DNA of 64,000 nt, from positions 420,095 to 484,094 of the forward strand of contig CAYVOI010000001.1 of the NCBI GenBank assembly GCA_964453605.1, read 5' to 3'. Positions within the stretch are counted from its first letter, which is position 1. Each line of letters opens with the position of its first letter. Position numbers and translations under genes: made by a program. This document shows, piece after piece, positions 6,159-64,000 of the stretch. Source of the DNA: an uncultured Gammaproteobacteria bacterium. GTDB taxonomy: Bacteria; Patescibacteriota; Patescibacteriia; Veblenbacterales; UBA10138. The notes beneath the pieces were generated by a model, which made no database searches, had not been told where the DNA came from, and was given only the letters and a program-made list of their open reading frames with translations.

Positions 6159-6252
6159 ATGACTTAATTATAGCGAAAAATGTTGATTTATGTTAATTTA
6201 ATGATACAACTTAATGGCCTAAACTTGGTATTTGCCAGGCATGGCTAAAAGA

Positions 6253-6332
6253 CCCAATGACGATACTGAGCTCTACGTTCAGCAACTCGTCATTGGGCCA
6301 TATCCCGAAAGGGGTATGGGGTTCGAAAGAAC
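6253..6332 (+). other. Structured intergenic element: an 11-bp inverted repeat followed by two adjacent GNRA-tetraloop hairpins
   Basis: cccaatgacga...tcgtcattggg; catatccc-GAAA-ggggtatg; ggttc-GAAA-gaacc. Confidence 0.4.
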
Positions 6333-6407
6333 CTAGCTGGCGTAGGGCTTTGTGTTTTGCCAAGAACCAACTCCAAAATTTCTTTTGTTTTACCTTAAAC
6401 CAAAATT

Positions 6408-9682: not shown

Positions 9683-11677
9683 CTAGTCGTCGTGCTTGCC
9701 GTTGCCCTTACCTTCTGACTTGTCGTGGTTCCCCTGGCTGTCTTGGTTACTGAGGCCCTGGGTACCAGACTTGCCATGTTCGTTATCGTTTTCACCCTGG
9801 CCCTGTCCGTTCTCTGACTTGTGCCCCTGCGGTTTAGCTGAAACCGTTAAGCCAGTGAGCGATTGCAAGCTGATGATGTTCTTGAACTTTTTACCCTTGG
9901 CGTGCCCGACTGCCCTGCCCTTAAACACCTTGAGGTTACAGTTAGCAGCGAGGTACACCGTGGTAGAGCCAGTTACCTGGTACAGGCGACCGTTGATAAG
10001 GCCGTTGGCACACACCTTACCCTGACGGTTCTCGTTCTCGCCTGAGAAGCTACCGGTTATCGCATGGCTGCCGGTGGCGTTGTTACCAGCTGCATCTTTA
10101 ATGACTGAGCCAGCCATAGTTACCGTGTCACCAACTGTTACCGTAGGCAGGGAAGTGCCGGCTGACAGGGTAATGGTGAGCATGGTGCCGCCGAGGTCCC
10201 AGGCCGCGCTGCCAATGTGTCCAGCGCCATCGAGCCAGCTGTGGCTGTTATTTAGCATGAGAGTTGAGTTGATGTTACTGTCCGTAATAGTGGGCTTGTT
10301 GGTAGCCTCACCAAAGGTGAGCACCACGCTGTCACCAGCTTCTGTAGCGTTCGTGCCGCCAGTGTTCTGGGCTACTGCGCTTGTAAGCACCGGGCCAGTA
10401 GTGTCAGTGGTAGTGAAGGTGCCGGTGATAGCGCTGCTGCCTGTGGCGCTGTTGCCACTCGCATCCTGCACCACTGAACCAGCCATAGTTACGGTGTCAC
10501 CCACAGCTACGGTAGGAACAGAGGTTGCACCGCTCAGTGTGATGGTAATGATAGTGCCAGCCGCATTCCATACCGCTGAACCAATATGGCCAGCCCCATC
10601 GAGCCAGCTGTGGCTGTTGTTCAAGGTGAAGGTAGTGTTGATGTTGCTGTCGGTAATAGCAGGCTTGTTGGTAGCCTCGTTAAACGTTACTGCTACGCTG
10701 TCGCCCGCTTCCTTGGCAATGGTACCGCCAGTGTTAGCTGCTACCGCGCTCGTGAGCACTGGGCCGGTGACATCACTGGTGAAGCTGCCGGTGATAGCCA
10801 TGCTGCCGCTAGCGCTGTTACCAGAGCCGTCGGTAATAACGCTGCCCATAACCGTTACGGTGTCGCCGGGCTCCACCGTAGGTAGGCTACCGTTGCCGCT
10901 TAGCGTGATGGTGTAAGCAGTACCAGCGGCGTTCCAGCTCGCTGACATGAGCACACCCAAGCCGTCGAGGAACGAGTGTCCGCTGGAGAGACCAAACACA
11001 CTCGGCAGGCTTCCAACTGTTATGACTGGTTTGTTGGTAGCTTCATTGAACGTCAACACCACGCTGTCACCAGCTTCCTTAGCACTGGTGCCGCCAGTGT
11101 TCATGGCTACAGCGCTCGTAAGGTGTGGGCCAGTAGTGTCGGCCGTGATCATGGCTGTGGTAACCGCCGTAGTGGTTGGAGAGTTGGCAGAGGTGACAAT
11201 GGCGTCGGTGGCGAGCTGGGCCGTGAAACCGTCAGCCGTGGCAGTGTCGCTCCAGGTTGAGCCGGTGGCCACCGTCACAAAGAACGTGGCACCAGTACCA
11301 ATGGTGTTGTTGCTGCCCGTGGTAATAGTCGTAGCTGAATCGACGTTCACCGTGCTCTGCGAACCAGCCAGCAAGTCTGAGCCGGCGTTAAAGCTGCCAT
11401 CGCCGTTGTCTTTATATACGGCGACCGAGGCGAGGTCAGAGCCTGCCAGCGTACTGCCGCTCACCTTGGTGAGGGTGACGTTGACACTAGAGAGCGTTTC
11501 ACCAGCGTCTTGTCCCAAAGAAAACTTAAACAGCGCCAGAGGAGCACTTGAGGCGGGTGCGACCTGTGGCGAGGTAACCAGGGAAACTGGTCCGGTGGTA
11601 ACCGTGACCGTGGCGTTGGCTACTGGCACAAACAGCGCCAGCTGCAACAGCGCCACCAGAGATGAAAATTTCTTCAT
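9683..11677 (-). CDS. Secreted or cell-surface protein with three tandem ~120-aa repeat domains and a Gly/Gln/Lys/His-rich C-terminal tail
   Basis: Signal peptide MKKFSSLVALLQLALFVPVANA; three repeats beginning TGPVLTSAVA.NTGGT...; the reverse-strand ORFs the track lists inside it are artefacts. Confidence 0.7.
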   Translation of the reverse strand: MKKFSSLVALLQLALFVPVANATVTVTTGPVSLVTSPQVAPASSAPLALFKFSLGQDAGETLSSVNVTLTKVSGSTLAGSDLASVAVYKDNGDGSFNAGSDLLAGSQSTVNVDSATTITTGSNNTIGTGATFFVTVATGSTWSDTATADGFTAQLATDAIVTSANSPTTTAVTTAMITADTTGPHLTSAVAMNTGGTSAKEAGDSVVLTFNEATNKPVITVGSLPSVFGLSSGHSFLDGLGVLMSASWNAAGTAYTITLSGNGSLPTVEPGDTVTVMGSVITDGSGNSASGSMAITGSFTSDVTGPVLTSAVAANTGGTIAKEAGDSVAVTFNEATNKPAITDSNINTTFTLNNSHSWLDGAGHIGSAVWNAAGTIITITLSGATSVPTVAVGDTVTMAGSVVQDASGNSATGSSAITGTFTTTDTTGPVLTSAVAQNTGGTNATEAGDSVVLTFGEATNKPTITDSNINSTLMLNNSHSWLDGAGHIGSAAWDLGGTMLTITLSAGTSLPTVTVGDTVTMAGSVIKDAAGNNATGSHAITGSFSGENENRQGKVCANGLINGRLYQVTGSTTVYLAANCNLKVFKGRAVGHAKGKKFKNIISLQSLTGLTVSAKPQGHKSENGQGQGENDNEHGKSGTQGLSNQDSQGNHDKSEGKGNGKHDD
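10034..11122 (-). repeat. Three tandem ~360-bp coding repeats inside the surface protein gene
   Basis: The protein-level repeats at aa 186-305, 306-427 and 428-548 map to these coordinates. Confidence 0.7.
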
Positions 11678-25170: not shown

Positions 25171-25627
25171 TCCAGAACCCGGCGCCGAGCTCGAACAGCT
25201 GAAGGCCCAGGCCGCCGAGTACCTGCAGGGTTGGCAGCGCGCTAAGGCTGACTACGCCAACCTGAAGCGCGAGAGCGAGGCCAAATTCAGCGAGCTCACC
25301 CAGTATGCCACCAGCGAGCTCCTCACCGAACTTTTGCCACTGGTAGACTACTTCAAACATGCGCTCCGCGCTGTGCCGCCAGAGCAAAAAGGCCTGCCTT
25401 GGGTAGAGGGGATACAGCATATTCAATCAAAGCTTGAGCAGGTGCTTGCTTACCACGGGGTTAAGGAGCTGGAAGTAGTAGGTGAGAAGTTTGACCCCGG
25501 CGTACATGAGGCAGTAGGGGAAGTTCAAAGCACCGAACCCTCGGGCACGGTCGTAGAAGAAGTAAGAACCGGTTTTATGCTCCATGACAAGCTTCTACAG
25601 CCAGCCCGCGTTAAAATTGCTAAATAA
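25145..25627 (+). CDS. grpE: Nucleotide exchange factor GrpE
   Basis: Coiled-coil N-terminus (YLQGWQRAKADYANLKRE) and the C-terminal beta domain. Confidence 0.85.
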   Translation: MSDNSSIPNPEPGAELEQLKAQAAEYLQGWQRAKADYANLKRESEAKFSELTQYATSELLTELLPLVDYFKHALRAVPPEQKGLPWVEGIQHIQSKLEQVLAYHGVKELEVVGEKFDPGVHEAVGEVQSTEPSGTVVEEVRTGFMLHDKLLQPARVKIAK

Positions 25628-25649
25628 ATACTCACTATTAACGCATACT

Positions 25650-25814
25650 ATGGACTACATTTGCCCCGAGTGCGGCTACACTGACGAGGCTAAAGGCCGC
25701 TGCCCCTCTTGCGACGTGCCCCTTATCCATATAGACAAAGTGGGTGAAGGTGCCGAAGGTGATGAGGGTGAGGCGGAGGACACCATGTCACCGCACGATG
25801 AGGACGAGGAGTAA
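25650..25814 (+). CDS. Small zinc-ribbon protein with an acidic tail (start moved to the internal ATG)
   Basis: CPECGYT...CPSCD forms a CxxC...CxxC ribbon. Confidence 0.5.
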   Translation: MDYICPECGYTDEAKGRCPSCDVPLIHIDKVGEGAEGDEGEAEDTMSPHDEDEE

Positions 25815-25859: not shown

Positions 25860-26258
25860 ATGCCTATTGTACGCTGGGCACCAATGCTACCTTCGTTTGA
25901 TGACATGTTTGACGGTTCGGGTTTCCCGAGTTTCGCCCCCGCGCTCGACGTGTACCAAACCAAGGACGACGTGGTGGTAGAAGCACCACTGCCAGGGTTA
26001 GACCCTGATAAGGTCACTGTCTCTATTGAGAACGACGTTTTGACGCTCGAAGGTAACTTCGAGCACAAGACCGAGGTGGATGACAAGAACTACTACCGTA
26101 GGGAAGTGCGCGCTGGTGCGTTTCACCGCCAAGTGGCGCTCCCCACTGCAGTTTCTGGTGAGCAGGCCAAGGCGACGTATGAAAAAGGTGTTTTGAAGAT
26201 TGTTATCCCTAAAGAGGAACGAGCAAAACCAAAAACAGTTAAAGTGGAAATTAAGTAG
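25860..26258 (+). CDS. Hsp20/alpha-crystallin family small heat-shock protein
   Basis: Alpha-crystallin domain (VDVYQTKDDVVVEAPLPG...FHRQVALP). Confidence 0.85.
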   Translation: MPIVRWAPMLPSFDDMFDGSGFPSFAPALDVYQTKDDVVVEAPLPGLDPDKVTVSIENDVLTLEGNFEHKTEVDDKNYYRREVRAGAFHRQVALPTAVSGEQAKATYEKGVLKIVIPKEERAKPKTVKVEIK

Positions 26259-26330
26259 TTGCTGGGAAAGCGAGGAACCGCCGCTAGGCGGGGCCGAAGC
26301 CCCGTACCGTGCCGTAGGCTCTGGTGCGGG

Positions 26331-26375
26331 GAGGAGCGCGCTAAACCCAAGACGGTTAAGGTAGAGGTAAAGTAA
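26331..26375 (+). repeat. Orphan, synonymously recoded copy of the last 14 codons plus stop of hsp20, in frame and 117 nt downstream of the real copy (26214..26258)
   Basis: gaggagcgcgctaaacccaagacggttaaggtagaggtaaagtaa encodes EERAKPKTVKVEVK*; the real end gaggaacgagcaaaaccaaaaacagttaaagtggaaattaagtag encodes EERAKPKTVKVEIK*. Confidence 0.85.
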
Positions 26376-45420: not shown

Positions 45421-47194
45421 CCTCAACTGGAAAATCGGTGGTGAGGCTGGCTACGGTATACTGTCGGCTGGGGAAATTTTTGCCTACGCTTGTGCCCACG
45501 GCGGCTTGGAGACCTTTGCCTATTTAGAGTACCCCTCACTCATTCGCGGTGGGCACAATACCTACCAGGTGTGGGCCAGAGCCGACAACGTGCAATCGCA
45601 CTCGCACCTGGTTGATCTACTGGTAGGGCTGAACAAAGAAACCATTGATAGGCATGTAGAGGAAGTAGTGCCTGGTGGCGGGTTAGTGTACGATACCGAC
45701 GATAAACTTTTGCGCGGCTACAAGTGTACCAAAAAAGGCATGGCTGCTTTCCCCATGCCGCTTGAAACCCTGGCCAGGAGTACGGGCGGGGAAAAGCTGA
45801 TGCGGAACGCCGTGGCGGTGGCCGCGAGCTTTGCCTTGGTGCAGTTTCCCTTTGAGTACCTGACTGAGCTTTTAAAGCGCGCCTTTGGTAAGAAAGGTGA
45901 GAAGGTGGTAAACCTAAACATTGCAGCCGCTAAGGCTGGTTATGATTATGTGGCCAAGCACTTTGCGGGTAAGTTTTTATACAAACTCGAGGTGCGGCCT
46001 GAGCGTGGGAAACGTTTGCTGGTCAATGGTAACGAGGCTATAGCTATGGGTGCTATTAAGGGTGGCGTAAAGTTCTACGCGGCTTACCCTATGACACCCG
46101 CCTCCTCCATTCTCCATTACCTGGCAACGCAGGAGAGGAACTACAAGTTGGTGGTAAAGCAAACCGAAGATGAGCTGGCCGCCATGAACATGGTGGCAGC
46201 CGCTGGCTTTGCAGGTGTCAGGGCTATGACCGCCACCTCAGGTGGTGGCTTTTCGCTGATGGTGGAAGCCCTAGGCCTGGCTGGCATGGTGGAGTCACCG
46301 GCGGTGGTTGTACTCGCGCAGCGCCCAGGCCCAGCCACGGGTTTGCCAACCTGGACTGAGCAAGGTGACTTACGTTTTGCCATGCACGCCGCCCAAGGTG
46401 ATTCGCCGCGCCTTATTGTGGCACCCGGCGACCCCGAAGAGTGCTTTGAGCTTACCTTTCATGCCTTTAACGTGGCGGAAAAGTACCAGCTGCCGGTAAT
46501 TGTGATGACCGATAAGTACCTGGCTGAGGCTAGACAAACCGTGCCCTTCTTTAAGACCGTCGGACTTACGATAGATAGGGGCGAGTGGGCCGATACATCG
46601 AAGCTGCCGCCTGATGCGCGCTTCAACCGCTACGCCGATACGGCGAATGGCGTAAGCCCTAGGAGCATCCCCGGCCAACCTGGTGGCATGTTTGTGGCTA
46701 ATAGCGATGAGCACGAGCCGACTGGATTAGCGGACGAGGAAGTTGGGACGAGAAAGATTATGATGGAAAAAAGGATGCGCAAGTTACAGTTCGCCAAGAC
46801 CGACGTGCCCGAACCCATAAAGCTCTACGGCCCTAAGGAAGCCGATGTTACGCTAGTGGGGTGGGGGAGTACGAAAGGTCCGATTTTAGAAGCCATCAAG
46901 ATGTTAGAGCGCGAGCCTAATAAGGCGAAGCCCGGTACCGACCCGGCCAGGACGGGGTCTGGTATCCGGGTAAACTTTTTGCAGGTGCGGTTACTCCATC
47001 CATTCCCGGTAAAAGAGGTGGATGCAGTTTTGAGGCAAGCCAAGCGCCGCGTGCTGATTGAAAATAATTATTCCGGCCAGCTCGGCGGTTTGATTCGGGA
47101 AAAAACGGGTATAGATATTACCGAACGACTGCTCAAGTACGACGGCCGACCCGTGCATCCGGAGGAGATTGTACAAAAACTAGTGGGCACTTAA
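45401..47194 (+). CDS. korA: 2-oxoacid:ferredoxin oxidoreductase alpha subunit (start at the ATG with an AAGGAG RBS)
   Basis: PFOR/KOR alpha domain architecture; followed by the TPP-binding beta subunit. Confidence 0.85.
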   Translation: MEHKTNNLNWKIGGEAGYGILSAGEIFAYACAHGGLETFAYLEYPSLIRGGHNTYQVWARADNVQSHSHLVDLLVGLNKETIDRHVEEVVPGGGLVYDTDDKLLRGYKCTKKGMAAFPMPLETLARSTGGEKLMRNAVAVAASFALVQFPFEYLTELLKRAFGKKGEKVVNLNIAAAKAGYDYVAKHFAGKFLYKLEVRPERGKRLLVNGNEAIAMGAIKGGVKFYAAYPMTPASSILHYLATQERNYKLVVKQTEDELAAMNMVAAAGFAGVRAMTATSGGGFSLMVEALGLAGMVESPAVVVLAQRPGPATGLPTWTEQGDLRFAMHAAQGDSPRLIVAPGDPEECFELTFHAFNVAEKYQLPVIVMTDKYLAEARQTVPFFKTVGLTIDRGEWADTSKLPPDARFNRYADTANGVSPRSIPGQPGGMFVANSDEHEPTGLADEEVGTRKIMMEKRMRKLQFAKTDVPEPIKLYGPKEADVTLVGWGSTKGPILEAIKMLEREPNKAKPGTDPARTGSGIRVNFLQVRLLHPFPVKEVDAVLRQAKRRVLIENNYSGQLGGLIREKTGIDITERLLKYDGRPVHPEEIVQKLVGT

Positions 47195-47219
47195 CTTATT
47201 AGTTTAATAAAATATCACC

Positions 47220-47579
47220 ATGGAGGCTCCGCTATCTATAAACAACAAAACAGGAATAGTATGGTACAAATCAGGTAAGGGCATTGGTGATTTTATTCTA
47301 CGCCTCTGCTTTGTTTGTGTGCTTATGTATTTTGTGCTCATAGGTGCGGCTTTTATTCTTATATATAGTGGATTTTTACAAGATATAGCATTAAGTGTAA
47401 GCAACGGTGCATACTATAATCAAATTTTGTTAAGTTATTATATTATCATAGCCTTAGTTACAGCGACACCGTTAGCTGGGCTCAATAGTAAGCAGGTACA
47501 GCAGGGTAAACGGTCGTATTTCTGGTGCACGCTTCTATGTGAGTTAATTTTTGCAGCCGTTCTGCTGCATATATGGTAA
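47220..47579 (+). CDS. Hypothetical three-TM membrane protein, AT-rich cargo between korA and korB
   Basis: About 37% GC; three hydrophobic helices. Confidence 0.5.
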   Translation: MEAPLSINNKTGIVWYKSGKGIGDFILRLCFVCVLMYFVLIGAAFILIYSGFLQDIALSVSNGAYYNQILLSYYIIIALVTATPLAGLNSKQVQQGKRSYFWCTLLCELIFAAVLLHIW

Positions 47580-47621
47580 CCACCAAAGATTTCGAAACTT
47601 CCCAATTTCCCACCTGGTGCC
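47571..47621 (+). repeat. Direct repeat copy 1: orphan copy of the korB start region (51 bp, 49 identical)
   Basis: atatgGTaaccaccaaagatttcgaaacttcccaatttcccacctggtgcc against copy 2 at 48851..48901 (atatgCCaacc...). Confidence 0.9.
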
Positions 47622-47687
47622 TTGAGCACCCGAGCCGGCCCATGCATCCGAAGGAAATCATAAATAACCATTAACTAGGATAAATGT

Positions 47688-48833
47688 ATGAATCTGCTGC
47701 AGTATAAGGAAGTCTCCAGAAGTCAACGTATTTTGTATTGGATAGCTCAGTTGATACCTTCAGTTTTAGTATTACTAATAAACTATATCGTTTTTAGCTA
47801 TTTTATAGACATAAATACTATTTATACAAAAGTGAACGAGTCGTTACTTTCCCCAATACTTGCAGGTTTTTATATCTTGGTGTTTGAGATAGTGCTCTGC
47901 TTAGTCTTCAGTTTAGGAATTAACCTGGCGTTCTTTTACAGACGCATCATTAAATCCACCGCCGGCCTCATCTTCTTAGTGTCATTGCAAATAGTGATTT
48001 TACCAATAGTTCAATATGCTGAGGCTAGTATTAAAGATAGTTATTATACGAGGAGCCGTGTTGACCTAGTCCAGAAGGTCTTAAATACAAAAAGTTCTGA
48101 GGTCGCAATACAAGAAATCATTGCGATGGATTTTACCGGCAGAAGGACAACTGAAACTGAGCTTATTAATACCCTGGTAGCAGCCCTCAACAGCGCAAAC
48201 GATGCTGACTCTCAAACAAGGCTTATACGAGCTATGGCAAACCCGTCGTTTGCTCTTCAGTTAGATAACAATAAGCATTGGGTTTACCCAATAGCCACAG
48301 CGATTGTTGAACTGAATACTAAAACATCCACAGCTTTTACCGTCAGGCAAGCGAGCTTTGCTACCCTTAAGGTTCACTGTACTGATGACACCGTGAGCGA
48401 CAATATTACTTGCGTAGGGTTATGGGAGTTGACCAAAGCCTCTTTGAACCTAAATGACGAGGCAGTACGTCAACTCACCTACTCAAATTTTTTTGATGCT
48501 GCTACGATGACCAACTATCAGTTCGATGACCCCCTCAGTAAGAGTGCCCTGAGTGCTATTTTTTCTTCTTTTGTTAATGAGCCAAATACAAGTGTTCGGG
48601 CGAACATGGCGATCGAAATGGTAAAATGGCTTGGGTCGGGCAACACTCATTATAATCTAATATCTACTACGAATAGTACTCTATCCATAGAGCTTGTTAA
48701 TTTGTTGTTAAGTTATAAAGATCAATTGCAGCCACTCGCTAATCCGCCAGGCAGACTAGGTTATGATCCTGTTAAAAATCTAGAACAGCTTAAGGTTAGT
48801 TTAGGTGGATCGGTAAACATTGCGACGCCATAG
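47688..48833 (+). CDS. Hypothetical membrane protein (four N-terminal TM helices plus a ~250-aa soluble domain), AT-rich cargo between the repeats
   Basis: About 30-35% GC; AGGA RBS; no motif. Confidence 0.6.
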   Translation: MNLLQYKEVSRSQRILYWIAQLIPSVLVLLINYIVFSYFIDINTIYTKVNESLLSPILAGFYILVFEIVLCLVFSLGINLAFFYRRIIKSTAGLIFLVSLQIVILPIVQYAEASIKDSYYTRSRVDLVQKVLNTKSSEVAIQEIIAMDFTGRRTTETELINTLVAALNSANDADSQTRLIRAMANPSFALQLDNNKHWVYPIATAIVELNTKTSTAFTVRQASFATLKVHCTDDTVSDNITCVGLWELTKASLNLNDEAVRQLTYSNFFDAATMTNYQFDDPLSKSALSAIFSSFVNEPNTSVRANMAIEMVKWLGSGNTHYNLISTTNSTLSIELVNLLLSYKDQLQPLANPPGRLGYDPVKNLEQLKVSLGGSVNIATP

Positions 48834-48850
48834 TCCGATTGAATGATCTT

Positions 48851-48901
48851 ATATGCCAACCACCAAAGATTTCGAAACTTCCCAATTTCCCACCTGGTGC
48901 C
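48851..48901 (+). repeat. Direct repeat copy 2: the functional korB start
   Basis: See copy 1. Confidence 0.9.
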
Positions 48902-49740
48902 CGGGGTGCGGGGACTTTGGTATTTGGACGTGCCTCAAGAATGCTTTTGTGGAGCAAGGTTTAGCGCCGCACGAGGTGTGCGTGTCGTTTGGCATTGGTT
49001 GCAGCGGCAACATGGCCAGCTTCCTTAATGTATATGGGTTCCACGGGCTCCACGGCCGCAGTATTCCACCTGCGAGCGCTATAAAGCTTGCGAATCATAA
49101 ATTAAATGTAGTTGCAATTGGTGGCGATGGCGATGGCTACGGCATTGGCCTGGGGCACACCATTCATGCTATGCGAAGGAACCTGGACATAACCTACGTG
49201 GTGCACAACAACCAGGTGTACGGGCTTACCAAGGGCCAAGCCTCACCTACCACTGAGAAGGGTGCGCCGACAAAGTCCACGCCGTTTGGTTTAATCGAAG
49301 AGCCGCTGGACCCTATGGCGCTTGCTATTTCAGCTGGGGCCACGTACGTCGCGCGCGGCTACGCGGGTAACGTAAAGCAGCTCACGGAGCTTATTGTGGG
49401 CGGTATGAAGCACAAAGGCTTTGCACTCATCGACGTAATGCAGCCGTGCGTTACCTACAACCACCTCAACACCTTTCACTGGTTCTACCAGCGTATCTAT
49501 GAGTTGGATAAAGAAGGCCATAATCCCAAAGACAAGCACGCTGCTTGGCTTAAGGCTATGGAGTGGCCCACGCCGTTAACGTATGACCCGAACCGCATTG
49601 ATCGAATTCCCACCGGGCTCTTCTACCAAGAAGAGCGGCCGACGTATGAAGACGAACTACCAGCTATTGCGGACAAGCCCTTAGTGGAACACTCGTTGGA
49701 GAACATCGATATTACAGCCCTAATGGAAACATTGAGCTAG
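48853..49740 (+). CDS. korB: 2-oxoacid:ferredoxin oxidoreductase beta subunit (TPP-binding)
   Basis: CPGCGDFG Cys motif and the GDG TPP-binding region. Confidence 0.9.
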   Translation: MPTTKDFETSQFPTWCPGCGDFGIWTCLKNAFVEQGLAPHEVCVSFGIGCSGNMASFLNVYGFHGLHGRSIPPASAIKLANHKLNVVAIGGDGDGYGIGLGHTIHAMRRNLDITYVVHNNQVYGLTKGQASPTTEKGAPTKSTPFGLIEEPLDPMALAISAGATYVARGYAGNVKQLTELIVGGMKHKGFALIDVMQPCVTYNHLNTFHWFYQRIYELDKEGHNPKDKHAAWLKAMEWPTPLTYDPNRIDRIPTGLFYQEERPTYEDELPAIADKPLVEHSLENIDITALMETLS

Positions 49741-52856: not shown

Positions 52857-53305
52857 TAGTGCTAAGCACACCTGATAAGCCGAATTCTGTATCCCGCCGA
52901 TGGCGGGACGGCGATTATCTATCTAGGCTCTACCTTGCGGTAGAGCTCAAGCTACCAACCCGACCGTAAAACTCACTTGTGGTGAGCCACGGCCCTATTT
53001 GGTATTGCACCGGGTAGAGTTTACCTAGCCGCCTGTGTCACCACAGACGCTGGTGGGCTTTTACGTTACTTCGCCGAAGCGAGTTATCCCGCGTAAGCGG
53101 GCCCACCGTTTCACCCCTTACCCGCCAGCTGGCGGGCGGGACTGTTCTCTGTTGTACTTGTCCTGCGGCGTGCCTTGCGGCAGCCAACGGCTCCTGTTAG
53201 GAGCTACCCCTCCCTATGCCTGGGAGCAGCGTGGTGTTCGGACTTTCCTCCCCGTAAAATCCCTTACGGGATCACGGGGCAATCGCCTAGGTGTACCTAG
53301 CTTGA
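52857..53305 (-). ncRNA. rnpB: RNase P RNA, bacterial type A (ends approximate)
   Basis: Minus-strand transcript contains GGAGGAAAGUCCGAAC (P4), GUAAGGGGUGAAACGGUGGG, GGUAAACUCUACCCGGUGCAAUACCAAAUAGGG and ACAGAAUUCGGCUUAUCAGGUG, aligning block by block with E. coli M1 RNA; a P1 helix is present. Confidence 0.9.
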
Positions 53306-60895: not shown

Positions 60896-62485
60896 ATGCT
60901 AGGTACGGGGCGCTTGAACACTAAACTTACCGGCGGTGCACTGGTCATCGCCTTTTTTTCTGTAGCCTCCAGGCTCCTGGGGGTGGTCAGGGACCGCGTG
61001 TTGGCCTCACACTTTGGAGCCGGTACCGTGCTCGATAGCTACTATGCCGCTTTTAAAATTCCTGACTTCATTTTCACCATTCTGGTGTTAGGCGCGTTTG
61101 GCTCGGCCTTTATTCCCGTGTACATTCAACTGAGGGAGCGAGCTGGAGAGGCTAAGGGGGTCGAACTCGCGCAGACCATGTTCAACATGCTGGTGGGCGC
61201 GCTCACCGTCTGCGCTGTTTTGGGAGCCGTGTTTGCCCCACAGCTCATGCCGCTTATAGCGCCAGGGTTTGACGTCGCGCGCCTCAGTCTGGCGATAGAC
61301 CTGTCGCGGCTGATGCTCATAGCCATTATCTTTTTTGGTGCCTCTAACCTTATTGGGTCAGTGCTCCAGGCACACCAGAGTTTTGTGGCGTACTCAGCTG
61401 CGCCGATTGTCTACAATCTTGGCATCATCGCAGGGCTGTACCTGTTGGTACCCGCCTTGGGCCCCGTAGGGTTGGCGTGGGGTGTGGTGCTAGGTAGCGC
61501 TCTGCACCTCGGGGTCCAGGTACCATCGGCAGTGAAGTTCGGGTGGCGGTGGCGGTGGCGCTTCAGCTGGCGTGACTCGGCCGTCCGAGAGGTGGTGCGG
61601 CTCATTGGCCCCCGGACCATTGGCGTAGCAGCCAGCTCTTTAGAACAGCTTATTACCGCCGTCTTTCTTTCTAGCTTAAGCGTTGGTAGTGTGGCCGCAT
61701 TCAACCTGGCTTCCAACTTACAAAGTTTCCCCATCAACGTGTTTGGTGTTTCGCTGGCTATTGCCGCTTTTCCTATTTTCAGCCAAGCGTTTAGCGCTAA
61801 CGACCACACTAGCTTTATACAACACTTTAAGGATAGTACACGCCTGATTCTGTTCTACGTCGTGCCACTCTCTATTCTGTTCTTGGTGCTTCGGGCACAG
61901 ATGGTGCGTGTGGTTTTAGGCAGTGGTGCGTTTAGCTGGGACGATACTATTCGTACCGCTGAGGTGTTAGGGTTTTTAGCTATGGCCATGGTCTCTGACA
62001 GCCTGGTACCGTTGGTGGCGCGGGTCTTTTACGCACTTGGTGATACTAAAACACCTGCCTGGACCGCCGTTGGCACAGTGGCTGTAAACCTCGTGCTCTT
62101 GCTGGTCCTTAAGACTTACGGTTTGGCAGGCATTGGCTTTGCTTACGTGCTATCACGTGCGTTTAGCTTGAGCCTGCTCGTGCTCTTCTTGGGTAAGCGC
62201 TTGGGGCAACTAGGTGGCGAGTATATACTACAAGGTGCAACCCGCATGACCTTGGCGGGTGTGGCGGCGGGTGGTGTAGCGTACGGTGCCCTCCACGTAC
62301 TCGCACCCTTGGTTGATATGCATACGTTTGTAGGCATATTTATCCAAGGCGTGGGGGCGGGCGCACTGGGCGCTCTGAGCTACGTGCTGCTCGCTATGCT
62401 CTGGCACTTGCCAGAGGTTCAATTTGTGGAGCGCTGGTTAGGTTCAGCTTGGCGCATAACGAAACGACTATGGACTCCGGCTTAA
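60896..62485 (+). CDS. murJ: Lipid II flippase MurJ
   Basis: MviN/MurJ N-terminus (...ASRLLGVVRDRVLASHFGAG...YYAAFKIPDF); 14 TM helices. Confidence 0.85.
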   Translation: MLGTGRLNTKLTGGALVIAFFSVASRLLGVVRDRVLASHFGAGTVLDSYYAAFKIPDFIFTILVLGAFGSAFIPVYIQLRERAGEAKGVELAQTMFNMLVGALTVCAVLGAVFAPQLMPLIAPGFDVARLSLAIDLSRLMLIAIIFFGASNLIGSVLQAHQSFVAYSAAPIVYNLGIIAGLYLLVPALGPVGLAWGVVLGSALHLGVQVPSAVKFGWRWRWRFSWRDSAVREVVRLIGPRTIGVAASSLEQLITAVFLSSLSVGSVAAFNLASNLQSFPINVFGVSLAIAAFPIFSQAFSANDHTSFIQHFKDSTRLILFYVVPLSILFLVLRAQMVRVVLGSGAFSWDDTIRTAEVLGFLAMAMVSDSLVPLVARVFYALGDTKTPAWTAVGTVAVNLVLLLVLKTYGLAGIGFAYVLSRAFSLSLLVLFLGKRLGQLGGEYILQGATRMTLAGVAAGGVAYGALHVLAPLVDMHTFVGIFIQGVGAGALGALSYVLLAMLWHLPEVQFVERWLGSAWRITKRLWTPA

Positions 62486-62517
62486 TTCGTAATTTTTGCA
62501 TCATAGCTCACATCGAC
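62470..62517 (+). repeat. Orphan, synonymously recoded copy of the first 16 codons of lepA, overlapping the murJ stop
   Basis: atggactccggcttaattcgtaatttttgcatcatagctcacatcgac (MDSGLIRNFCIIAHID) against the real start atggaaccgtcacacattcgtaatttctgtattatcgctcatattgat (MEPSHIRNFCIIAHID) 103 bp downstream. Confidence 0.85.
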
Positions 62518-62572
62518 CCCGCAGGAGAACGCTGTGCGTTCCCTACGGGGCAAGCCACGACTACCGCACACT

Positions 62573-64000
62573 ATGGAACCGTCACACATTCGTAATTTCT
62601 GTATTATCGCTCATATTGATCATGGAAAGTCGACCTTGGCCGATAGGTTCCTGGAGGTTACAGGTACCGTAGCGAAGCGCGATATGCGCGCGCAGCTCCT
62701 TGACCAAATGGATTTGGAACGTGAGCGGGGCATAACCATTAAGCTGCAGCCGGTCGCCATGCACTGGCGCGGGCACTTGCTCAACCTCATCGACACCCCG
62801 GGGCACGTCGACTTTACCTACGAGGTGTCGCGTTCTCTGGCCTGCGTGGAGGGCGCCATACTCTTAGTAGACGCCACCCAGGGTATACAGGCACAGACCA
62901 TAGCTAACTTTGAGCTGGCACGTGAGCAGAAGCTCAAAGTTATTCCGGCGGTGAATAAAATAGATATGCCCGCCGCCAATGTGGAGAGCGTAGTGGCAGA
63001 ACTCTGTCAGTTAGTAGGTTGCACGCCTTCAGACGTGTTGAAAGTTTCAGCCAAAGATGGCACAGGGGTAGAAACGTTGCTCCAAGCTGTCTTGGACCGA
63101 GTACCGCCACCAAAAGCTAGTGCGCCTGCAGCTACTACCAGGGCACTCATTTTTGACTCAGCCTACGACGATTTTCGCGGCGTGGTGGCGGCGGTGAGGG
63201 TGGTAGATGGTACCTTAGGTAAGGGTGGTCAGTACCGACTCTTAGGTAGTGGTGCGACTGGGGAACTTTTAGAAGTTGGGACCTACACGCCAAAACTTAA
63301 GCCAACTGATGCTTTGGGACCTGGTGAAATTGGTTATGTGGTCACTGGTCTTAAAGACATCCGCCAAGCCAGAGTTGGTGACACCATAGTCACTGGTGCA
63401 GGCACACCCGAGCCGTTGCCTGGCTACCGCGAGGTAAAACCCATGGTGTTCGCTGGGTTTTACCCAGGGGTGGGGGAGAGTGCAGATAAGCTCAGGGATT
63501 CGTTGGGAAAGCTTAAGCTTAGCGATGCCAGTTTAAACTTTGAGGGTGAACATTCGCAAGCACTAGGGTTTGGTTTTCGGTGTGGGTTTTTAGGGTTACT
63601 CCACCTTGATATTGCCCGTGAACGTTTGAAACGCGAGTACAACCTCAAGGTCACCATAACCACGCCCTCGGTCGCGTACGAAGCTGATCTCAAAACCGGT
63701 GAGCAGCTTAGTGTTCATGGACCCTTGGAGCTGCCGACGCCAGACCGCATTCTCGAGATTCGCGAGCCGGTGGTTAAAGTTGATATTGTTACACCCATGG
63801 ATTACCTCGGGAACCTGATGGCAATGGTTCAAGAGTTCAGGGGTACCTACCGCACCACCGATTACCTGGGTGAGGGCGAGCACAACACGCGAGCAGTTTT
63901 ACGCTACGAGTTACCTTTGAATGCCATACTGGTCGATTTTTACGACCAGGTGAAGAGCGTTAGCGCAGGGTATGCCTCGCTGAACTACGAATTTCTAGCC
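62573..64000 (+). CDS. lepA: Elongation factor 4 (LepA), 3' end truncated by the window edge
   Basis: G1-G4 GTPase motifs (AHIDHGKST, DTPGH, NKID); the frame is open to the window end. Confidence 0.9.
   Translation, partial: MEPSHIRNFCIIAHIDHGKSTLADRFLEVTGTVAKRDMRAQLLDQMDLERERGITIKLQPVAMHWRGHLLNLIDTPGHVDFTYEVSRSLACVEGAILLVDATQGIQAQTIANFELAREQKLKVIPAVNKIDMPAANVESVVAELCQLVGCTPSDVLKVSAKDGTGVETLLQAVLDRVPPPKASAPAATTRALIFDSAYDDFRGVVAAVRVVDGTLGKGGQYRLLGSGATGELLEVGTYTPKLKPTDALGPGEIGYVVTGLKDIRQARVGDTIVTGAGTPEPLPGYREVKPMVFAGFYPGVGESADKLRDSLGKLKLSDASLNFEGEHSQALGFGFRCGFLGLLHLDIARERLKREYNLKVTITTPSVAYEADLKTGEQLSVHGPLELPTPDRILEIREPVVKVDIVTPMDYLGNLMAMVQEFRGTYRTTDYLGEGEHNTRAVLRYELPLNAILVDFYDQVKSVSAGYASLNYEFLA

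Follow-up and report, generated by a model that had tools for sequence, protein, structure and literature searches.

A duplicated lepA start and a conserved hairpin in Patescibacteria: probable scar of a gene-end displacement

How can a core gene come to have two starts? The question is raised by a 64,000-nucleotide stretch of the genome of a Patescibacteria bacterium near Kerfeldbacteria (contig CAYVOI010000001.1, positions 420,095 to 484,094; hereafter the window), in which the beginning of lepA, the gene for EF4, is present twice, 103 bp apart, at the end of murJ. The answer favoured here, with a probability of roughly 0.6, is that the locus is a gene-end displacement scar, in which a hairpin element lies at the edge of the P-loop block of lepA together with a homeologous surrogate 5' end. 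The hairpin belongs to a family of about 40 to 55 nt that is named X in this report. Loci from separately assembled contigs of this genome and from other lineages of the Candidate Phyla Radiation (CPR) are cited by label (L001 and so on).

The lipid II flippase gene murJ is an open reading frame (ORF) on the forward strand at 60896 to 62485 (Pfam MurJ, E = 2e-87), with its TAA stop at 62483 to 62485. Its last 16 nt are also the first 16 nt of the upstream lepA start, referred to as the orphan, which lies at 62470 to 62517 on the same strand, has its ATG at 62470 and reads MDSGLIRNFCIIAHID. Working lepA starts 103 bp further on, in another frame, with the ATG at 62573 (MEPSHIRNFCIIAHIDHGKST), and occupies 62573 to 64000 of the forward strand, extending past the window end, with matches to Pfam GTP_EFTU, EFG_C and others. 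In L001 and L002 the full-length gene, with LepA_C, encodes 597 to 612 amino acids. The first 48 nt of working lepA (ATGGAACCGTCACACATTCGTAATTTCTGTATTATCGCTCATATTGAT; 62573 to 62620, forward strand) are the surrogate 5' end, which reads MEPSHIRNFCIIAHID, has AT-rich wobble positions and leads in frame into the body of the gene. Between the two copies is a spacer of 55 bp (62518 to 62572). The frame opened by the orphan ATG runs through the hairpin to a TAA stop 23 nt within working lepA (62470 to 62595, forward strand) and could be a translated upstream ORF; the equivalent orphan frames in relatives likewise terminate near the working lepA start. A Logan gene call begins lepA at an in-frame GTG at 62534, within X, giving 612 amino acids with 13 additional residues derived from the element. 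By comparison with relatives, the ATG at 62573 fits better as the lepA start.

Over codons 6 to 16 the orphan and working copies differ at seven nucleotides, all in third positions and all synonymous, whereas 9 of the 12 nucleotides in codons 2 to 5 are different. The probability that seven out of seven differences fall on the 11 third positions is 7.7e-5. This is the sole pair in the window with 26 or more of 33 positions identical within 300 nt, and 20 Markov-simulated windows contained none, so chance is excluded. The GC content of third codon positions (GC3) over the 11 shared codons is 0.18 in the working copy and 0.45 in the orphan. Within working lepA, GC3 is 0.25 for codons 2 to 17 and 0.67 for the following 43 codons, the AT-rich tract ending at about codon 18. 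The longest identical run between the copies, 11 nt (ATTCGTAATTT) in codons 6 to 9, would be usable as a crossover core only if both copies are hybrids; at the inner boundary the identical run is only 2 nt. An earlier account of this DNA, made without database searches and called here the sequence-only reading, had given the two start sequences, 103 bp apart, exactly as they are, and had described the seven differences in the 11 shared codons as all synonymous and the working copy as using the AT-richer codons, all of which holds. It had also described 55 bp of unrelated sequence between the copies; the length is correct, while the spacer is not unrelated, as it belongs to the X family.

The duplicated start is genuine. 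The same MurJ protein is present on two Logan contigs, separately assembled from SRR12313479 and SRR12313480, whose identity to the window is 100% over 13,105 and 8,307 bp, both lepA copies included, and the 876-kb NCBI contig also carries the junction. The concern that two strains had been merged in assembly, or contigs concatenated, is understandable for DNA of metagenomic origin with synonymous-only differences resembling those between two strains. The probability of such an artefact is considered negligible. The independent k-mer assemblies from two runs agree completely over 8 to 13 kb. The copies, 103 bp apart, share no run longer than 11 nt, and a k = 31 graph would therefore be unable to loop between them. 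In addition, the layout is found in at least eight further lineages from other projects, in the metagenome-assembled genomes and contigs of unrelated studies, and is more general than the sequence-only reading had it.

Comparison with relatives addresses which of the two starts is the native one. The murJ-lepA synteny is general across the Patescibacteria group. In the X-less L169/L170 (MDHRLIRNF...) and L172 (MDQKLIRNF...) the working lepA start overlaps murJ by the same 16 nt as the orphan does; in L175 and L171, also X-less, the overlap is 10 nt and 4 nt respectively, which bears out the ancestral overlap of the genes that had been proposed. A gap of about 10 nt separates murJ and lepA in the X-less L003, L166, L167 and L173. 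When 62518 to 62620 is removed in silico, orphan codon 16 joins working codon 17 in frame, which is the X-less arrangement. The nucleotide sequence closest to the orphan is the working copy of L165, a sister lineage, from which it differs at 2 of 33 nt. These comparisons identify the orphan at 62470 to 62517 as the native lepA start. X sits directly after codon 16 of native lepA, and the native start, cut off and orphaned, still overlaps murJ. The gene is intact because codons 1 to 16 exist a second time right behind X, complete with an ATG and continuing in frame into the remainder of lepA.

The X hairpin at lepA (62517 to 62550, forward strand) has a conserved outer stem, CCCCG/CGGGG, a lineage-specific inner stem, GAACGC/GCGTTC, and a minimum free energy of -23 kcal/mol. 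It is followed by the tail of X and the rest of the spacer (62551 to 62572, forward strand; CAAGCCACGACTACCGCACACT), which ends directly at the working ATG. This tail shares the motifs GCC(C)ACGAC and CCGCAC with an X copy found beside a tRNA in this genome (L001 14096-14160) and has no significant similarity to the downstream lepA codons (p = 0.85). The lepA spacers of all lineages with this layout start with (A)CCCCG directly after ...IAHID(H), contain a strong hairpin, and end with ...(C)TACGGGGC(G/A)AG. The base of the stem is conserved and the inner stem is wholly different among lineages, yet paired. Across 15 aligned copies the paired cells amount to 92%, compared with 72% in shuffles, and 6 of the 12 base pairs of the helix show double, compensatory changes. 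The covariation score is 0.484 as against 0.103 for shuffled alignments, none of 500 shuffles scoring as high, and slid registers reached at most 0.106. The outer end ACCCCG and the base sequence are kept across hosts of 34 to 53% GC. X is a conserved structured hairpin family, comparable to the repetitive extragenic palindromic (REP) elements or the Rickettsia palindromic elements (RPE), and is apparently mobile.

The covariance model of X matches the lepA copy at 62515 to 62556 with 48.7 bits (E = 2e-9) and has no matches in control sequences that total 0.72 Mb and had been preselected for the 3' motif. In the 64-kb window there are three copies, with one more just beyond it, the 64 kb plus 1 kb being the part of the 876-kb genome that was surveyed. 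No Rfam family matches X, either at a permissive threshold at the junction or at the gathering threshold over the window, and terminator prediction found none at the hairpin, which has no U-tract. An X-like match at 53248 to 53285 was rejected, being merely the 5' region of the RNase P RNA (bacterial class A; 52860 to 53298, reverse strand; 219.9 bits). A metagenome scan for TACGGGGCGAGAC-N(10-40)-ATG returned at least 120 loci, from which a first lepA filter found none; among the covariance model matches listed for these loci, four are true X copies. Two scans of viral contigs with 14-mers gave 143 random matches and no X, and thus no sign of a phage origin. An X copy is also present at a contig end in L111 (8695-8740).

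X is not confined to lepA. Nearly every intergenic copy examined abuts a displaced gene end, and in every case its CCCC end faces the orphan, irrespective of the direction of the gene. In the window hsp20 (25860 to 26258, forward strand; Pfam HSP20) has the duplication at its other end. The working, surrogate 3' end (26214 to 26258, forward strand; EERAKPKTVKVEIK before the stop, ending in KVEIK) is followed by a 72-nt spacer (26259 to 26330) containing X on the reverse strand, the CCCC end of which adjoins the orphan native 3' end (26331 to 26375, forward strand; EERAKPKTVKVEVK before the stop, ending in KVEVK), which lies 117 bp downstream of the working copy. The covariance model matches this X at 26294 to 26333 on the reverse strand (37.9 bits, E = 7e-7), and it shares CCCCGCA...TACGGGGC with the lepA copy. 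Eleven of the 12 differences between the hsp20 copies are at third positions, and the orphan peptide is the consensus of relatives. The closest relative, L319, is without the 117-nt insertion and is colinear with the orphan 3' end and the region downstream. The likeness between lepA and hsp20 seen by the sequence-only reading is thus real: the hairpin family is the same and the orientation opposite. The gene is part of a heat-shock cluster, hrcA-grpE-(ORF)-hsp20-dnaK, named from the translations, in which the ORF between grpE and hsp20 (25584 to 25814) encodes 76 amino acids with two CxxC pairs and an acidic tail.

X is present at further genes outside the window. Among unrelated metagenome contigs, in L095 (3575-3700) it lies between an orphan dnaK start and working dnaK, downstream of grpE, and in L138 (560-760) between an orphan uvrB start (MEFKLKAKFKPTGD) and a working uvrB with an unrelated N-terminus. 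Transfer RNA genes are also affected. In the source genome, about 970 to 1090 nt past the window end (L001 14072-14195), there is an orphan tRNA 3' fragment, then X, then an intact tRNA that is cut by the contig end, with the hairpin within the T-arm of the displaced tRNA (GGTCGTGGG[X]TTCGATCCCCACCTTCGGCTCCA). In L007 (6900-7200) a tRNA-Thr(CGU) is found between two inverted X copies, each abutting an orphan end of an older tRNA. The orphan acceptor halves pair with each other (GCCGAAG/CTTCGGC) and differ by compensatory changes from the intact gene (GCCAGAG/CTCTGGC). Here the displaced copy runs on past the hairpin, so that the hairpin is inside it. An inverted repeat of 11 bp (CATGTCGCGCC/GGCGCGACATG) lies on either side of the intact tRNA-Thr as well. 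In L025 X is beside a tRNA-Gly with a decayed orphan. The junctions are at the edges of ultra-conserved blocks: the P-loop of lepA, GIDLGT of dnaK, FKPTGD of uvrB, and the D- and T-loops of tRNAs.

Copies without an orphan exist as well. The third, divergent X-like copy in the window (46925 to 46972, reverse strand) is a weak match to the model (19.5 bits, E = 0.018) and forms an in-frame insertion in korA that adds PNKAKPGTDPARTGS; these 15 amino acids are missing from all nine aligned homologues, one of which is 82% identical. In L097 (1771-1807) X is in frame inside an aminoacyl-tRNA synthetase gene. These two cases show that X can insert by itself.

The order orphan, X, new lepA start is present in at least nine CPR lineages. 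In L007 the orphan (MDTQP...) and working copies differ by six nucleotides, all synonymous and in third positions. Other orphans are more altered, with three non-synonymous changes in L008 (A>V, D>N, H>Y), shortening to MDLSKIKN in L005, truncation in L016 and only a remnant in L009. The layout is still present in L016, although lepA there is 2.6 kb from murJ. The sister lineages L008 and L005 share an older event, orphans decaying with time, and from the non-synonymous change and truncation in these older orphans it follows that the event in the window is young. The point at which the orphan ends also differs by lineage, being after codon 16, after codon 17, in codon 15 or in codon 12, a spread of up to 17 nt.

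Stacks of three lepA starts with X copies between them occur in L006 (1850-2115) and L165 (3000-3269). The last two units in L006, X included, are a 109-bp tandem repeat with 96% identity, and one codon there is AAA in one lepA copy and CGT in another. The two X copies of L165 are of different subtypes, and its X2 and the X of L007 share about 87% identity, although the MurJ proteins of these two lineages are only 63 to 70% identical to that of the window. X-bearing lineages are scattered in the MurJ tree. This scatter, together with the two subtypes in L165, requires repeated events or horizontal spread. It is the L165 lineage that the window resembles, both in its X subtype (GGGGCAAG...) and in the surrogate N-terminus, MEPSH, which is similar to MEPSL, MEPSR and MEPSF of L165, where MEPSL is the native start. 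The idea that surrogate copies travel with X was set aside, as 33 nt resolve too little and there is no clear clustering across lineages.

Taken together, the synonymous patterns (7 of 7 at lepA, 6 of 6 in L007 and 11 of 12 third-position differences at hsp20) suggest that both copies had evolved as working genes before they came together. A neutral orphan would be expected to change at all codon positions, and a synonymous-only pattern argues against neutral divergence. The AAA and CGT codons in L006, the unrelated N-termini of uvrB and the compensatory changes in the tRNA stems further support separately functional alleles. The second lepA copy probably came from a related lineage and not from local duplication. 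In the mechanism proposed, the DNA of a relative would recombine with an ultra-conserved block as its only usable homology, and the fixed left end of X, ACCCCG, would be joined illegitimately at A, AC or ACC(C) microhomology, a geometry that would be that of homology-facilitated illegitimate recombination. At the lepA, uvrB, dnaK and tRNA junctions this end does meet a resident A, AC, ACC or ACCC, often with only 1 to 3 nt of microhomology, and at lepA the sequence G-AC-C-AC-GG yields two junction variants, after GAC and after GACCAC. Two orders of events could be envisaged: X may arrive with the new end, or it may insert first with the gene rescued afterwards.

Several observations weigh against this displacement by imported DNA. 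No donor genome has been identified, and no lepA-adjacent X without an orphan was found, so that the donor needed by the simplest import model, one with X beside an intact lepA that is not duplicated, is missing. The right boundary of the imported tract is placed by codon composition alone, and AT-richness is in any case common at the 5' ends of genes. Several lineages have almost identical left junctions (after GAC or after GACCAC), which could reflect the action of a site-specific enzyme, or one origin followed by spread through ordinary recombination. The displaced copy perhaps continues past the hairpin in L165-X1, L016 and L006 (p = 0.03-0.06), though not in the window (p = 0.85). In the tRNA-Thr case, and perhaps in these three, the hairpin may be an insertion inside the old copy and not the leading end of imported DNA. 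Finally, ORF inspection without a Pfam scan showed no obvious recombinase, transposase or competence gene near X, within 3.5 kb of seven other copies.

Other explanations make different use of the same evidence. The sequence-only reading implied that the start had been duplicated locally and then diverged. In such an account, a tandem duplication of the lepA 5' region would have resolved the overlap with murJ, which the 109-bp repeat of L006 resembles and with which the similar N-termini of orphan and working copies in several lineages (MDTQP/MDTQH, MDLAK/MELSK) agree. It is nonetheless a very improbable origin of the locus. Third-position differences of 7 out of 7 and 6 out of 6 reject what is expected of a neutral orphan, where most changes would be seen and at all codon positions, and fit instead two alleles that were each functional. 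The sharp change in the window from codons 2 to 5 to the next 11 codons, the AAA/CGT codons, the heterologous uvrB N-termini and the compensatory tRNA stems likewise need functional alleles that evolved separately. The same hairpin at other genes is also left unexplained. A simple 103-bp tandem duplication was rejected outright, since the spacer is unlike lepA codons 17 to 34 and is not derived from them. Just as improbable is a regulatory leader, in which the orphan would be translated as an upstream ORF in coupling with murJ, its peptide under selection, with passage through the hairpin controlling lepA. It is true that every intact orphan retains an ATG and a frame open through the hairpin, that the frame stops not far from the working start (window, +23 nt; L006, +8; L007, -15), and that the hairpin structure is under selection. 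The element is found with the same polarity at the 3' end of hsp20, at both ends of tRNAs and inside ORFs, and is hence not a lepA leader; its orphans are decayed or truncated in L008, L005, L009, L016 and L044, and there is neither a match to an Rfam family nor a U-tract terminator. Roles as a promoter or terminator were rejected on the sequence, as was bypass of the T4 gene 60 type. Adenine mutagenesis like that of diversity-generating retroelements was rejected because six of the seven differences are wobble T/C exchanges and one involves adenine (ATA and ATC).

More credible than these, and a serious rival although still unlikely, is a miniature site-specific cassette, in which X and the surrogate end together form a tiny non-autonomous mobile element homing to an ultra-conserved site and moved in trans by a tyrosine integrase or an HUH enzyme (IS200/IS605-like, or like the RAYT transposases of REP elements), carrying with it the gene end that saves its target. 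The architecture is equal to that of dusA islands, where the insert supplies a new 5' end and the old one is left at the outer boundary (PMC4482086). Transfer RNA genes are targeted with a T-loop junction, stacks with the newest copy adjoining the working gene resemble tandem accretion at an att site, and the fixed outer end ACCCCG and conserved base sequence persist in hosts of 34 to 53% GC. The close similarity of L165 X2 and the L007 X in spite of the MurJ distances is also accounted for. Against this, ORF inspection found no obvious integrase or transposase beside X copies, the insert measures just 55 to 72 bp, and forming a circle of some 100 bp would be physically difficult. At the inner junction in the window the copies agree over no more than 2 nt in a row, short of an identical core of at least 6 bp, the end point of the orphan is variable, and the surrogate N-termini are lineage-like and do not travel with X. 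A two-ended cassette predicts an inverted X and an orphan lepA 3' end downstream of lepA, and these are absent. As a tentative suggestion, X with its surrogate end might be a self-complementing homing mini-element of about 100 bp, moved in trans, that targets ultra-conserved coding and tRNA blocks. Such an element would bring along a substitute start, stop or tRNA end and so render its insertion harmless, a proposition just as doubtful. If it were so, spread between diverged CPR lineages and stacking at one site would both be possible.

The korB locus had been thought to have the same architecture as lepA and hsp20, which is only loosely the case. In the closest relative, L320, korA and korB overlap by 14 nt. 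In the window they are separated by about 1.66 kb of AT-rich DNA (47195 to 48902; GC about 0.38-0.40) containing ORF119 (47220 to 47579), an orphan korB start and ORF381 (47688 to 48833). Near-identical direct repeats of 45 nt (47578 to 47622 and 48858 to 48902) flank about 1.2 kb of this DNA, which includes an ORF, and the korB joint lacks an X hairpin. The sequence right after the orphan korB start (TTGAGCACCCGAGCC...CATGC) resembles the tail of the tRNA-linked X copy, and the C-terminal tail of KorA is altered. Elsewhere in the window there is a LOOT RNA (6216 to 6334, forward strand; Rfam RF03000, 87.5 bits), and a 664-amino-acid ORF (9683 to 11677, reverse strand) contains at least three tandem repeats of about 366 to 369 bp at 10068 to 11083, seen in both peptide and DNA.

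These observations bear on how core genes change in the tiny, streamlined genomes of the CPR, where gene ends would be swappable for foreign-looking versions with function kept. An orphan end with an X hairpin is a searchable sequence signature and would provide a readable record of recombination among diverged uncultivated lineages, in which young, old and stacked events are distinguishable. In X, Patescibacteria have a structured family of repeats able to insert into coding sequence. There is also a warning for annotation, as gene callers place the lepA start inside X and orphans can be mistaken for strain-merge errors. Were X to be an active homing element, its choice of target, the most highly conserved blocks of universal genes, and its built-in target repair would be of interest to mobile-element biology and genome engineering.

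The combination seen here joins known themes, gene-end replacement by inserted DNA and hairpins like REP and RPE; a literature search found only analogues and no described equivalent of the combination. Islands and prophages at the dusA 5' end, and islands in tRNA genes, supply a new end to the gene into which they insert (Farrugia et al. 2015, PMC4482086). As in those islands, the lepA and hsp20 inserts restore their target, the original end is orphaned at the outer boundary, and the gene ends form imperfect repeats; tRNA genes are also struck, at the T-loop, and tandem stacks are formed. They differ in that the insert here is 55 bp (lepA) or 72 bp (hsp20), with a conserved hairpin and without an integrase or cargo. 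X also shows no identical crossover core at the junction, the end of the orphan varies by up to 17 nt, and X inserts alone, in frame, inside ORFs.

Homology-facilitated illegitimate recombination in natural transformation, the subject of work by de Vries & Wackernagel (2002) and Prudhomme et al. (2002) as summarised in PMC6382021, is proposed in that summary to help restore inactivated genes from diverged donors, a role in keeping with the layout here. The events summarised there and those proposed at X would have in common one homologous anchor in DNA that is otherwise diverged, with illegitimate joining at a short, GC-rich microhomology. In the summarised events recipient DNA is replaced or deleted and the joints are scattered, whereas here the donor end would always be X, joined at the anchor's edge, and a duplication remains.

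As a repeat, X is most like the REP elements and REPINs, which are mobilised by RAYT transposases, and the RPE, which insert in frame into genes. Like them it is a dispersed, non-coding palindrome, short, imperfect and rich in GC, whose stem base is conserved (GTAG/CTAC often being present). Like the RPE it adds an in-frame peptide, in korA and the aminoacyl-tRNA synthetase, while the lepA copy instead separates two starts. To our knowledge neither REPs nor RPEs are associated with duplicated or replaced gene ends. X differs in marking displaced gene ends and in having Patescibacteria as its hosts. Xenologous gene displacement in situ, reportedly described by Omelchenko and colleagues in 2003, is the replacement of a resident gene, or part of one, by the version of another lineage. 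In the same way part of lepA would have been functionally replaced at its own locus; what sets the lepA scar apart is that the replacement covers no more than about 16 codons, that the displaced piece persists, and that X marks the joint.

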